This document shows positions 50,790 to 54,809 of a DNA stretch of 64,000 nucleotides, one piece after another. A program made the position numbers and the translations under genes. The notes beneath the pieces were generated by a model, which saw only the letters and a program-made list of their open reading frames with translations, had not been told where the DNA came from and ran no database searches. How positions within the stretch are numbered: the stretch's first letter is position 1; each line of letters opens with the position of its first letter. The DNA is from Planctomycetia bacterium (GTDB lineage: Bacteria; Planctomycetota; Planctomycetia; Pirellulales; UBA1268). Location: the NCBI GenBank assembly GCA_046343855.1, contig JBKDMX010000092.1:18214-82213 (forward strand). Reading direction: 5' to 3'.

Positions 50790-51713
50790 ATGCCGGTCTA
50801 TGCAGACAATGTCGACGCGATCGGGCGGACGCCGCTCGTGCAGATCAACCGCCTGACGCAGGGCCTCGATGCCCGCGTGCTCGCGAAGATCGAAGGCCGC
50901 AATCCGGCCTACAGCGTGAAGTGCCGCATCGGCGCGGCGATGATCTGGGATGCGGAGCGGTCCGGCCGGCTCAAGCCGGGACAGCACGTCGTCGAGCCGA
51001 CGAGCGGCAACACCGGGATCGCGCTCGCCTTCGTCTGCGCCGCCAAGGGCTATCCGCTCACGCTCCTGATGCCGGAGTCGATGTCGATCGAACGGCGGCA
51101 GTTGCTCAAGGGTCTCGGCGCGAATCTCGTGCTCACGCCTGCGGCCGAAGGGATGCGCGGCGCGGTCGCGCGGGCCGAGGAGATGGCCCAAGACCCGGCC
51201 TATTTCATGCCGCAGCAGTTCAAGAACCCCGCCAATCCCGAGATCCATTTCAAGACGACGGGTCCCGAGATCTGGAACGACACCGAAGGCAAGGTCGACG
51301 TGTTCGTGGCGGGTGTCGGCACCGGCGGCACGATCACGGGCGTGTCGCGGTTCTTCAAGCACGGCCAGGGGCAGAAGCTCCATACCGTGGCCGTCGAACC
51401 GGAGGCGAGCCCGGTGCTCTCCGGCGGCAAGCCGGGGCCGCACAAGATCCAGGGCATCGGCGCGGGCTTCGTGCCCGACGTCGTCGATCGCTCGCTCATC
51501 GACGAGATCCTCACCGTCAGCAATGAGGAGGCCTACGCGGTGGCCCGTCGGCTCGCGAAGGAGGAAGGCATCCTCTGCGGCATCAGCTGCGGCGCGGCGA
51601 TGCACGCGGCCCTGCGGGTGGCCGCCCGCCCCGAATCGGCAGGCAAGACGATCGTCGTCGTGCTCCCCGACTCCGGCGAGCGCTACCTCTCCACCGGCCT
51701 CTACGAATCCTGA
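50790..51713 (+). CDS. cysK: Cysteine synthase A
   Basis: [56 protein letters not shown]. Confidence 0.95.
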
Positions 51714-51849
51714 ATCGAATGACTGAAAACGAGCGAAGGGATCGGCGGAAGCTCGACGAGCCCAAACCTCACGATGGCGCCGCTTCGGCCCACCGCGAGG
51801 AGACTTCTGCCGTCCCGAAGCGAAAGACTCGATCAATGGAGACACTTCA

Positions 51850-53307
51850 ATGAGTGACAGCCTTCTGCAGCGCAGCGTGACGACGGCGGTGGCCCGCAAT
51901 CTGGCCACGACGTCGAAGACCCGGCCGAGGATGATGTCGATCACGCCTCGGCATCTGCTCCATCTCCTGCCCTGGGTGCAGGTGGAGGGGGGCACCTACC
52001 GCGTCAATCGCACGAAGGTGGAGCTCTCGAAGGCGGAGCGGATCGAGATCAGCCCGGCGCCGGACGGACTGTCGTTTGCGCCTGGGGCGCTGCGGAGCGT
52101 GCCCCTCCTCGCGAAGCTGCCCGACTCGGTGCTCGAGCGGATGCAGCAGCGGTTTCGCACGGAGGAGGTGCCGCTCGGCAGCGACCTGCTCATCGAGGGG
52201 CAGGATCGCAGCACGTTCTTCGTGATCGCGCAGGGGCAGGTGGAGATTCTCTCGAAGGGGGCCCATGGCCGTGATCTGCGGGCGGCCCTGCTCACGGAAG
52301 GGGAGTTTTTCGGCGAGGTCGATCTGGTGAGCGACCGGCCGAGCGACATCACCGTGCGCACGATCACGCCCTGCGTGCTGCTCACGTTCTCGCGACGCGA
52401 TCTCGATGCCGTGCTCGATGAACTGCCGAACCTCCGCGACGATTTCAAGAAGGCGATCGACGAGCACCTCGAGCTGCGAAGCACCGTGAATCGCTATGGC
52501 GAGCGCAACATCGACCTCGTCAGCGGCTTCGCGGAAAACGTCGAGATCCCCGAGACGTTCGTCGATTACGCGGCCAACCCCCGGGAATATTCGCTCTCGG
52601 CGATCCAGACCGTGGTCCGCGTCCACACGCGGGTGTCGGACCTCTACAACGGGCCCTACGACCAGCTCGAGGAGCAGATTCGGCTCACGATCGAGGGGAT
52701 CAAGGAACGGCAGGAGTGGGATCTCATCAACAGCCAGCGGTTTGGGCTGTTGCATTCGGTCGATCCCGCGATGCGGATCAGCACGCGGTATGGGGCGCCC
52801 ACGCCCGACGATCTCGACGAACTGCTCGCGCTCGTCTGGAAGAAGCCGGCCTTCTTCCTGGCCCATCCCAAGGCGATCGCCGCCTTCGAGCGGGAGTGCA
52901 CGCGGCGCGGCGTTCCCCCCGTCACCACCATGCTCCACGGCACGCCCGTGATCATGTGGCGGGGAGTGCCGCTCGTGCCCTGCGACAAGCTCGAGGTGAA
53001 GAGCCGGTCGGGCTACAGCCAGTCGTTCGGCACGACGAGCATCCTGCTCTTGCGGGTGGGCGAGGCCGATCAGGGCGTGGTCGGCCTGCATCAGACGGGC
53101 ATTCCTGGCGAGATCATGCCGAGCCTGTCGGCGCGGCTGATGGGGCTCGACAGCCTGGGCGTGGCGTCATACCTGCTCACCAACTACTTCTCACTCGCCG
53201 TGCTCACCGACGACGCGCTCGGCGTGCTCGAGAACGTGGAGGTGGGCTATTACCACGACTACCGTTCCGATGGCCGTACGGCCTACGTCGAGGGATCGGG
53301 CATCTGA
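51850..53307 (+). CDS. Family 2B encapsulin shell protein (SrpI-like, with cNMP-binding-domain insertion)
   Basis: [31 protein letters not shown], inserted CBD (EGEFFGE), IPETFVDY...[43 protein letters not shown]. Confidence 0.92.
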
Positions 53308-54809
53308 TGCACGGCGCGGACGACATCACGAAGGCGGCCCGACAGCTGCTCGCCGACGCGGTCGCCGAGGGGAGTGCTGATCCGCCTTGCTTCCCCACGC
53401 CGGAGCCGCTCGCCCCGGCAGGGCCGCCATCGACCGACCTCTCGGGCGTGCGGGCATTCGTCAGCCGGATCCGCGGCCTTGATCATCTGCAACTCCCGCC
53501 GGTGCGGTTCGATCGGCCGCTCGCGCCCTCGACCGCCGCTGTGCCGCTTGGCCTGGTGGATGTCGGTGTCATCCGCCGCGATTTCCCGATCCTCCGCGAA
53601 CGGGTGCACGGCAAGCCGCTCGCCTGGTTCGACAATGCGGCCACGACGCAAAAACCGCAGGCGGTGATCGATGCCATCGCACACTTCTACACCCATGACA
53701 ACTCCAACATCCACCGCGGCGCCCACACGCTGGCCGCCCGGGCGACCGATGCCTACGAACACGCCCGCCAGACGGTGGCGACGTTTCTGGGCGCGAATGC
53801 CCCTGACGAGATTCTCTTCGTGCGTGGCTGCACCGAGGGGATCAACCTTGTGGCCAACATCCTCGCGCCGAGCCTCTCCCGCGGCGATGAGATCGTGCTC
53901 ACGGAACTCGAGCATCATGCCAACATCGTGCCCTGGCAGATGGTGGCGGAGCGGACCGGCGCGGTGATCCGCGTGGCCCCAATCGACGATCATGGCGACG
54001 TCGTCCTCGAGGCCTACGAGGGCCTGCTCTCGCCCCGCACGAAAGTCGTGTCGCTCTCACATGCCTCGAACAGCCTGGGGACGATCCTGCCGGTGGAGAT
54101 CATGACGGGGCTGGCGAAGGCCCGCGGCGCCCGCGTGCTCGTGGACGGCGCCCAGAGCGTGTCGCACTTCCCGGTGGACGTGCGCAGGATCGGCTGCGAT
54201 TTCTACGTCTTCTCCGGGCACAAGATCTTCGGGCCCACCGGCATCGGCGCCGTCTTCATGACGCAGGAGGCGCAAAGGGCGCTCCCGCCCTGGCAGGGTG
54301 GCGGCAACATGATCAAGGATGTCACCTTCGCCCACACGACCTACGCCGAGCCGCCGGCCAAGTTCGAGGCGGGCACGCCCAACATCGCCGACGCGATCGG
54401 CCTGGGAGCGGCGCTCGACTATGTCACGCGGCTCGGCCGCGAACAGATCGCCGCCTACGAGCACCACCTGCTCGACTACGCCACGGGAAAACTCACGGCG
54501 ATCGACGGCCTCCGGCTCATCGGCACGGCCCGGGAGAAGGTGGGCGTGCTGTCATTCGTGATTCCCGGTCTCGACCCGGTCGAGATCGGCAAGGCGCTCG
54601 ATCGCGAGGGGATCGCGGTGCGCGCCGGCCATCACTGTGCCCAGCCGTCGCTGCGGCACTTCGGCCTCGAGGCCACGGTGCGGCCGTCGCTGGCGTTTTA
54701 CAACACCACCGCCGAGATCGACCGGCTCGCCGATGCCGTGGCCGGGCTCGCCCGCGCGCCGCGGCGCCGCTACGACCGTTCGGAATCGCTGCTGCCGCCC
54801 GTCAGGTAG
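53307..54809 (+). CDS. SufS-type cysteine desulfurase with N-terminal extension (likely encapsulin cargo)
   Basis: FDNAATTQKP, SNIHRGAH, FSGHK (PLP Lys), FEAGTPNI, RAGHHCAQP; about 85-aa Pro/Ala-rich N-terminus; TGATG overlap with the shell gene. Confidence 0.93.
   Translation: MHGADDITKAARQLLADAVAEGSADPPCFPTPEPLAPAGPPSTDLSGVRAFVSRIRGLDHLQLPPVRFDRPLAPSTAAVPLGLVDVGVIRRDFPILRERVHGKPLAWFDNAATTQKPQAVIDAIAHFYTHDNSNIHRGAHTLAARATDAYEHARQTVATFLGANAPDEILFVRGCTEGINLVANILAPSLSRGDEIVLTELEHHANIVPWQMVAERTGAVIRVAPIDDHGDVVLEAYEGLLSPRTKVVSLSHASNSLGTILPVEIMTGLAKARGARVLVDGAQSVSHFPVDVRRIGCDFYVFSGHKIFGPTGIGAVFMTQEAQRALPPWQGGGNMIKDVTFAHTTYAEPPAKFEAGTPNIADAIGLGAALDYVTRLGREQIAAYEHHLLDYATGKLTAIDGLRLIGTAREKVGVLSFVIPGLDPVEIGKALDREGIAVRAGHHCAQPSLRHFGLEATVRPSLAFYNTTAEIDRLADAVAGLARAPRRRYDRSESLLPPVR

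Follow-up and report, generated by a model that had tools for sequence, protein, structure and literature searches.

A planctomycete operon of cysteine synthase, an encapsulin shell of Family 2B and a SufS-type cysteine desulfurase with a short presumed loading domain

Cysteine desulfurases are linked to Family 2 encapsulins in several described systems. The Family 2A shell SrpI of Synechococcus elongatus is induced by sulfur starvation and is encoded beside sulfate transport genes (PMC8049743). Sulfur accumulation inside the shell is known only for the 2A system of A. baumannii 118362 (PMC10836720). Solved Family 2B shells include those of S. griseus (Sg Enc/EshA, 9bhu) and the two-component shell of S. 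lydicus (9bje, 9bix), and these Streptomyces shells have as cargo either a terpene cyclase or, within a xylulose-kinase operon, an unidentified cargo. Family 2B shells accompanied by a cysteine desulfurase were catalogued by Andreas & Giessen (2021), who listed 199 such operons in 9 phyla (PMC8346489), and according to a 2025 paper on two-component shells, operons with a desulfurase may have either one shell or two (PMC12407261). Here we describe an operon with a 2B shell and a desulfurase in a 64,000-nucleotide (nt) stretch of a Planctomycetia bacterium genome (contig JBKDMX010000092.1), called the window below, whose own positions are used throughout.

Three genes lie head to tail in one direction on the plus strand of the window: cysK, a Family 2B encapsulin shell gene and a SufS-type desulfurase gene. 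The first gene encodes O-acetylserine sulfhydrylase, or cysteine synthase A (50790-51713). Its ATG is preceded by AGGAGG, and its product passes the equivalog model TIGR01139 (457.8 bits, cut-off 350.95) and matches PALP with 266.9 bits in a Pfam profile search. The shell protein of 485 amino acids (aa) is encoded at 51850-53307 and matches NF041163 (encap_f2b) with 588.8 bits (cut-off 400) over positions 1-449 of the 450 in the profile. The 500-aa desulfurase at 53307-54809 is of the SufS type (class II) and scores 528.1 bits with the TIGR01979 sufS model (cut-off 475.1). The shell stop codon TGA (53305-53307) and the desulfurase start codon ATG (53307-53309) have one A in common, forming a TGATG overlap. 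An earlier sequence-only reading had proposed this arrangement of cysK, a 485-aa 2B shell and a coupled desulfurase, and family models over cut-off bear out each gene at its position. It had also proposed a planctomycete host, with which the nearest relatives and an H-X9-DG prepilin at 37575-38762 agree. The locus is intact and belongs to the catalogued class of Family 2B desulfurase encapsulins. Our preferred reading, with a probability of about 0.8, is that it is a functional cysK-shell-desulfurase operon of this class, for which we infer shell assembly, N-terminal cargo loading, sulfur storage and control with sulfur assimilation.

The shell protein aligns with the solved 2B shells 9bje, 9bix and 9bhu over residues 7-466 (E 1e-116 to 1e-106), that is, along the whole protein including its insertion domain. 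The 2A model NF041162 matches residues 220-471 only. The SrpI-like HK97 domain PF19307 covers residues 210-466 (386.4 bits), and the HK97 part is homologous to the 2A shells, with residues 228-474 aligning to 6x8m (SrpI, E 9.5e-105) and 8t6r (A. baumannii, E 4.2e-100). In a Foldseek search with an AlphaFold2 (AF2) model of the shell, the best match was 9bhu, the S. griseus 2B shell (E 3.7e-33), and 6x8m and 8t6r came next. The HK97-like fold, which the sequence-only reading had left to structure prediction, is present in this model. From these alignments, the 485-aa protein would assemble into a closed icosahedral HK97-fold shell. The window's genome has one shell gene only. Between this shell and that of the nearest relative (locus L020), 99% of amino acids but only 93% of nucleotides are identical, which indicates strong purifying selection; cysK is 88.5% identical at the nucleotide level and the neighbouring genes are 85-89% identical. 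Recent horizontal transfer was considered for the 99% shell identity and rejected, since 93% nucleotide identity is close to the 85-89% of the neighbours. A decaying shell gene was likewise rejected because the identity pattern is that of purifying selection.

The insertion in the shell is a cyclic nucleotide monophosphate (cNMP)-binding-fold domain (CBD) at residues 107-190 (52168-52419, plus strand; PF00027, 53.1 bits). The 2A shells of SrpI and A. baumannii, as described (PMC8049743; PMC10836720), are without this domain. The S. griseus 2B shell was reported not to bind cAMP, and this was ascribed to a Trp that replaces the phosphate-binding Arg, the equivalent of R82 in the phosphate-binding cassette of CAP; in the same source the substitution is stated for 'essentially all' 2B domains (10.1101/2024.04.23.590730). 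The canonical Arg is missing from the window's shell as well, and the residue at this position is Ser165. In the HMMER alignments, S165 stands opposite Trp in the solved 2B shells, and the Streptomyces shells have Trp where the window's clade has Ser. Of 99 aligned shells, 60 have Ser in the Arg column, 21 have Trp, 8 Pro, 4 Arg and 3 Thr, and Lys, Phe and Met occur once each. The 60 Ser shells are the window's entire clade, 55 being from loci with a desulfurase and 5 from loci cut short. In this sample, none of the 70 shells whose loci have a desulfurase carries Trp, compared with 21 of the 29 whose loci have none. The CBD has the fold, but with its triplet Arg-Ser/Thr-Ala replaced by Ser165-Asp-Ile it probably does not bind cAMP or cGMP.

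The four Arg shells form a separate planctomycete clade with the canonical P-R-x-A cassette. These 2B shells (L018 in genome G264, L019/L070 and L068) are about 51-54% identical to the window's shell, and judging from the retained cassette they might still bind cyclic nucleotide. In G264, an IS91-type transposase gene follows the operon (L018).

The catalytic domain of the desulfurase (53559-54809) is matched by TIGR01979 and NF041166, and Aminotran_5 covers residues 107-474 with 477.2 bits. K306 (in SGHK) and C444 (in HHCAQ) stand in invariant or nearly invariant alignment columns, and we take them to be the catalytic residues, as in SufS enzymes. The region before this domain, residues 1-84 (53307-53558), is a disordered extension and the presumed cargo-loading domain. 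Pro and Ala make up 31% of it against 19% of the remainder of the protein, and Pfam and curated profile searches gave no family match before residue 83-107, which agrees with the Pro/Ala-rich N-terminal extension of the sequence-only reading. Two motifs in the extension are common to planctomycete, Bacteroidota and Chlorobiaceae cargos. Motif 1 is ITKAARQLLADAV, to which (D/E)xTPxLIAQIAxRLxNE corresponds in the alignment of the clade (like IAxIAxRLxNE). Motif 2 is LSGVRAFVSRIRGL and corresponds to GL(R/K)xFVxx(I/V)(R/Q), in short GLRxFVxxxR. The 2A systems of SrpI (PMC8049743) and A. baumannii (PMC10836720) likewise have SufS-type cargo loaded through a disordered N-terminus. Their published loading domain is longer, with about 225 aa and up to five motifs compared with 84 aa and two motifs here. 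Motif 1 resembles the published 2A motif LARLANEFFS, whereas a motif of the published AASPYYFLDG type is absent from the window's extension. With start codons that were chosen mechanically, the extension is 84 aa long in the window, 88 aa in L020 and about 108 aa in the other nearest relative (L021), against 98-325 aa in 16 other loci of the planctomycete clade and about 324-408 aa in the separate clade (L018/L068).

Complex prediction was done with the full shell protomer and desulfurase residues 1-95. The three runs scored 0.46, 0.48 and 0.46 and the best of three controls scored 0.00; the runs share at least 37% of contacts, and the predicted local distance difference test (pLDDT) score of the partner is at least 50. 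In the calibration, 58 of 80 solved complexes and 2 of 110 mismatched pairs reached the mark; with a score of 0.60 or lower, only 7 of these solved complexes and both of the passing mismatches did so. As our own alignments were used, the calibration counts apply only approximately. The prediction weakly suggests that the N-terminus of the desulfurase binds the shell and loads the cargo. An internal start yielding an untagged desulfurase was also considered and rejected, since no in-frame ATG, GTG or TTG in the first 140 codons has a conserved ribosome-binding site in the window, L020 and L021.

To place the operon among its relatives, we used the best 80 of 586 confirmed relatives from a scan of species-representative genomes, and 53 related loci were counted from these. 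Planctomycetota contribute 22 loci with shells 73-99% identical to that of the window, among them loci of Pirellulales, Planctomicrobium, Schlesneria, Aureliella and Pirellulaceae SH501, the last a complete genome. Bacteroidota contribute 24 loci and Chlorobiaceae 6, with shells 61-72% identical. The remaining locus (L031) is on a contig binned as 'uncultured Geobacter sp.'; its shell is 78% identical and nested in the planctomycete subclade, and its gene order is shell-desulfurase-cysK. It is either a mis-binning or a transfer. In a quick maximum-likelihood IQ-TREE tree, with Shimodaira-Hasegawa approximate likelihood-ratio test (SH-aLRT) support only, the 53 loci are one clade (100%) and the planctomycete rows a subclade (95%). 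The desulfurase gene directly follows the shell gene in all 44 related loci with at least 1.5 kb of downstream sequence, across three phyla. In L059 the shell and the desulfurase appeared fused, and in L092 the shell appeared over-long; both were rejected as artefacts of extending the open reading frame (ORF), in which a real stop codon was read through. Same-strand cysK occurs in 35 of the 53 loci, upstream in 31 and downstream in 4. A single shell gene is the commoner state (43/53), and two shell genes occur in 10 of the 22 planctomycete loci and in none of the 31 others. The first of two shells in one planctomycete bin (L029:6001-7458) has an in-frame TAG at codon 130, which is either a pseudogene mark or a sequencing error. 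Among 401 sampled genomes of the phylum, a full-length 2B match was present in 3 (the window's genome G000, G264 and G378), and 12 more had a match to the HK97 part only, that is, of the 2A type.

These counts change the weight of what the sequence-only reading had called unusual. Its single shell is the majority form in the clade, and the 2025 paper describes both one- and two-shell operons (PMC12407261); its planctomycete host is shared by the 22 Planctomycetota loci; and the class as such was already in the catalogue with its 199 operons (PMC8346489). The host, the single shell and the cysK partner are ordinary for the Planctomycetota-Bacteroidota-Chlorobiaceae clade. Compared with the catalogued operons, the window has the same internal CBD, a SufS-like desulfurase downstream with an unannotated disordered N-terminus, and a sulfur context. 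The difference is in the partner gene, which here and in the related clade is cysK and not the serine acetyltransferase or rhodanese of the main text. That main text names these two as enriched accessories and leaves cysK unnamed, but its accessory Fig. S5 may list cysK, and its data tables may already place Planctomycetes among the 9 phyla (PMC8346489). As the sequence-only reading had noted, no serine acetyltransferase or rhodanese was found among the genes scanned (42.5-62 kb of the window).

A sulfate ABC transporter operon, sbp-cysT-cysW-cysA, lies 7 kb upstream of cysK on the minus strand (39787-43803, with the likely sbp start ATG at 43758). Its genes are over the cut-offs of TIGR00971 (362.9 bits), TIGR02139 (327.3 bits), TIGR02140 (355.9 bits) and TIGR00968 (390.6 bits). 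Between sbp and the operon are a Na+/H+ exchanger gene, a small nucleotidyltransferase gene, a second cysK, a gene with helix-turn-helix (HTH), HATPase and STAS-like domains, and a gene for a sigma-54 activator. The second cysK (46668-47639, minus strand; TIGR01139, 418.7 bits) is 60% identical to the first. The gene divergent from it (47864-48865, plus strand) encodes HTH, histidine-kinase-like ATPase and STAS-like DUF4325 domains. The sigma-54-dependent activator, a bacterial enhancer-binding protein (bEBP), is encoded directly upstream of the first cysK (48994-50601, plus strand) and matches Sigma54_activat (234.8 bits) and AAA_lid_14. The sole match in its N-terminal 190 aa is a sub-threshold GAF (E 0.0087). 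A homologue of the activator is found at most 6 kb from the shell gene in 7 of the 22 planctomycete loci, and rpoN is on contig C71 of the window's genome.

The sigma-54 sites differ in strength among the genes of this region. A perfect consensus, TGGCAC-N5-TTGC (43813-43827, minus strand), precedes sbp at 55-70 nt before the likely start; it is the only exact match in the window, and the corresponding sites of L020 and L021 retain both boxes but differ in their spacers, so that all three genomes have the site. A consensus scan found a site with one mismatch, CGGCACGGCCTTTGC (47703-47717, minus strand), 64 nt before the start of the second cysK. The element before the first cysK, TGGAGGCGCGCTTGCT (50752-50767, plus strand), is a tentative promoter that agrees with 8 of 12 consensus positions and fits GG-N10-GC, 23 nt before the ATG. 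It ends a 40-nt block which is the sole conserved block in the activator-cysK spacer of the window, L020 and L021. No sigma-54 site was found before cysK or the shell gene in other planctomycete loci, except a different one in L032. We therefore assign sbp to a sigma-54 sulfur regulon, to which the second cysK likely belongs. Because the sites before cysK or the shell gene end with the nearest kin, L032 apart, sigma-54 control of cysK-shell-desulfurase is tentative. A scan for sigma-70 promoters and terminators over 50500-55300 found nothing promoter-like, and its one terminator-like site is outside the operon on the minus strand; Rfam gave zero matches at the gathering threshold over 38000-58000.

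The sequence-only reading had described the operon as embedded in a sulfate-uptake region, and this holds loosely, with the transporter 7 kb upstream and other genes between. It had also joined sulfate import, cysteine synthesis and the compartment. This link is favoured by the nearest relatives, in which sbp and the activator gene are adjacent and divergent and are followed by contiguous cysK-shell-desulfurase, and by the sbp site in three of three genomes. In the window, the second cysK is in a block of about 5 kb that splits sbp from the activator gene and is not so placed in L020 or L021. To call the whole 'one module' is too strong for the window, given this separation and a cysK site with 8 of 12 positions that is confined to nearest kin.

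On our preferred reading, the 485-aa protein would form an HK97-fold shell with the nucleotide-binding-fold domains displayed outside. The desulfurase, translationally coupled to the shell, would be loaded by its short disordered N-terminus with the two conserved motifs. By analogy with Family 2A, the encapsulated enzyme may convert cysteine to alanine and sulfane sulfur, which would accumulate in the shell. Co-expressed CysK could feed cysteine made from sulfide and O-acetylserine, the coupling to the compartment being suggested by synteny, and CysK would take the role of the serine acetyltransferase of many 2A operons. Expression may rise with sulfur demand, given the precedent of SrpI (PMC8049743) and the sigma-54 neighbourhood.

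Several points weigh against this reading. No bench study of any 2B desulfurase encapsulin was found in the literature searched, and sulfur storage is for this reason extrapolated from 2A shells. The AF2 model of the shell, built with 58 sequences, is of moderate confidence (pLDDT 66.7, predicted template modelling score 0.44). The desulfurase failed the cargo model NF041166 (f2_encap_cargo1), a model named for 2A cargo, with 737.7 bits against a cut-off of 800 and a match to profile positions 224-621 only. This score is explained by the unmatched first 223 positions, which represent the long 2A loading domain. The N-terminus of the window's desulfurase is the shortest of the planctomycete clade and has no YYF(L) motif of the longer cargos. 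The sigma-54-like element upstream of cysK is a weak one, limited to the nearest kin. Finally, that the cargo is the genome's only SufS suggests that at least part of the enzyme would have to work with acceptors outside a shell.

The last point leads to the alternative that survives best, in which the desulfurase of this reduced-genome lineage is mainly or partly a housekeeping SufS, free in the cytoplasm and passing sulfur to SufE and SufBCD for the assembly of Fe-S clusters. Relaxed or partial encapsulation would then show in the shortened N-terminus, and the shell would contain just part of the enzyme or serve as an overflow store. The SufS model has a single match over its cut-off in G000, which is 95.5% complete, and this match is the encapsulin desulfurase. 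The next best scores 208.8 bits and is a TIGR01977-like class-V gene (294.8 bits) beside moaA. The suf operon of this genome (C110:12728-18550) consists of a sufR-like gene, sufC, sufB, sufD and a Rieske/SufT fusion, then unrelated genes, without sufS. In the genomes of L020 and L021, the suf operon and the genes after it are the same, and no other SufS is over cut-off (suf loci L103, L104 and L105 were compared with C110). Pirellulaceae SH501 has sufE-sufS at that position of its suf locus, besides its encapsulin desulfurase. All three genomes without sufS retain SufE, encoded by a lone gene (C109:28779-29150 in G000), and SufU was not found in G000. All three genomes are metagenome bins, which lessens the weight of the absence, but an assembly gap is unlikely as its cause since three independent bins agree. 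The suf operon has lost sufS in the window's lineage (3 genomes).

Fe-S assembly would then be served either by another class-V enzyme, for which the gene beside moaA is a candidate that argues against a housekeeping role of the cargo, or by the encapsulin cargo wholly or partly outside the shell. Service outside the shell fits the unusually short tag, at 84-108 aa in the three genomes. Against a cytoplasmic enzyme stand the strong purifying selection on the shell, its persisting translational coupling with the desulfurase, the retention of both N-terminal clade motifs, and the finding of no conserved internal start with a ribosome-binding site in the three genomes. We therefore regard a mainly or partly housekeeping desulfurase as unlikely, though well above the other alternatives. 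A further idea, which we hold to be speculative and improbable to a similar degree, is that sufS was deleted in a small-genome freshwater lineage and that the cargo, as sole SufS, made the shell part of essential sulfur trafficking and not an optional store. A short-tagged fraction would serve SufE outside, or sulfur released from the shell would feed Fe-S assembly, and the Ser-type CBD might sense a sulfur metabolite instead of a cyclic nucleotide and gate the supply.

The 485-aa protein could also be a nucleotide-sensing regulator of the Crp/Fnr type, in the style of former annotations, and not a shell. The closest solved chains carry the depositor name 'Crp/Fnr family transcriptional regulator' in the PDB, and the protein does have a cNMP_binding domain. 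Those PDB entries are, however, cryo-EM encapsulin shells (10.1101/2024.04.23.590730), no DNA-binding domain was found in the protein, and residues 210-466 are an SrpI-like HK97 domain, which makes a regulator very improbable. Weaker still, and hardly credible, is a remnant prophage capsid beside sulfur genes by chance, for which the occurrence of the HK97 fold in phage capsids speaks, but against which stand the lack of phage genes among the neighbours scanned, the shell-desulfurase pairing in all 44 testable loci of three phyla, and the passed curated encapsulin model.

The spacer between cysK and the shell gene contains a dispersed, hairpin-forming repeat resembling repetitive extragenic palindromic (REP) elements (51733-51821, plus strand), recognized by module counts and folding. 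Its two complementary modules have about 63 and about 53 copies on 36 contigs of the window's genome and form 38 pairs, most of them spaced by 16, 23 or 63 nt. The fold energy of the spacer repeat is -48.7 kcal/mol (z -2.31). The repeat insert is absent from L020 and L021, in which this spacer is only about 31 nt. It is also absent from co-occurring strains in one DNA run (X2), in which 51713 is joined to 51850 by 17-29 other letters. Downstream, a Zn_peptidase_2 gene (54770-55588, minus strand) is convergent with the desulfurase gene, and its longest ORF covers the last 40 bases of the latter; no terminator-like site was found between the two. Two genes downstream of the operon lies a gene (56675-58192, plus strand) that encodes a Ser/Thr protein kinase domain joined to a haem-NO-binding (HNOB) domain.

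Nearly all of the region 50600-54900 (4.3 kb) is present in 17 public runs from 11 studies (0.90-0.97 of sampled words), and one of these runs may be the assembly's own source. The run labels are mostly freshwater, lake or plankton metagenomes, and three are 'fungus metagenome'. The organism is apparently a planctomycete common in freshwater plankton. In two metatranscriptome libraries of a single study, contigs cover cysK, the shell gene and the desulfurase gene and bridge the shell/desulfurase junction; they belong to a relative differing in 5-8% of letters. Contigs from RNA libraries do not prove transcription, so they argue weakly for expression. Parts of the stretch that these contigs leave uncovered, and the small shares in X18-X20 (0.08-0.14), were taken neither as evidence on habitat nor as evidence for lack of expression.

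Within the literature searched, the desulfurase shells studied so far belong to 2A, and work on 2B has been on shells with terpene enzymes. The clade described here is compact, with a single shell, a cysK partner and a loading tag of 84 aa in the window, and is widespread in freshwater, rumen and green-sulfur bacteria. As a catalogue entry the locus is otherwise ordinary, and what is worth keeping is the Ser-type CBD, the cysK partnership, the minimal loading tag and the lost housekeeping sufS. Since its CBD differs at a key ligand position from the Streptomyces shells that do not bind cAMP, it would be a good system for asking which signal the 2B insertion domain detects. The loss of sufS, specific to this lineage, offers a natural experiment on whether Fe-S biogenesis can be fed by a desulfurase inside a shell.

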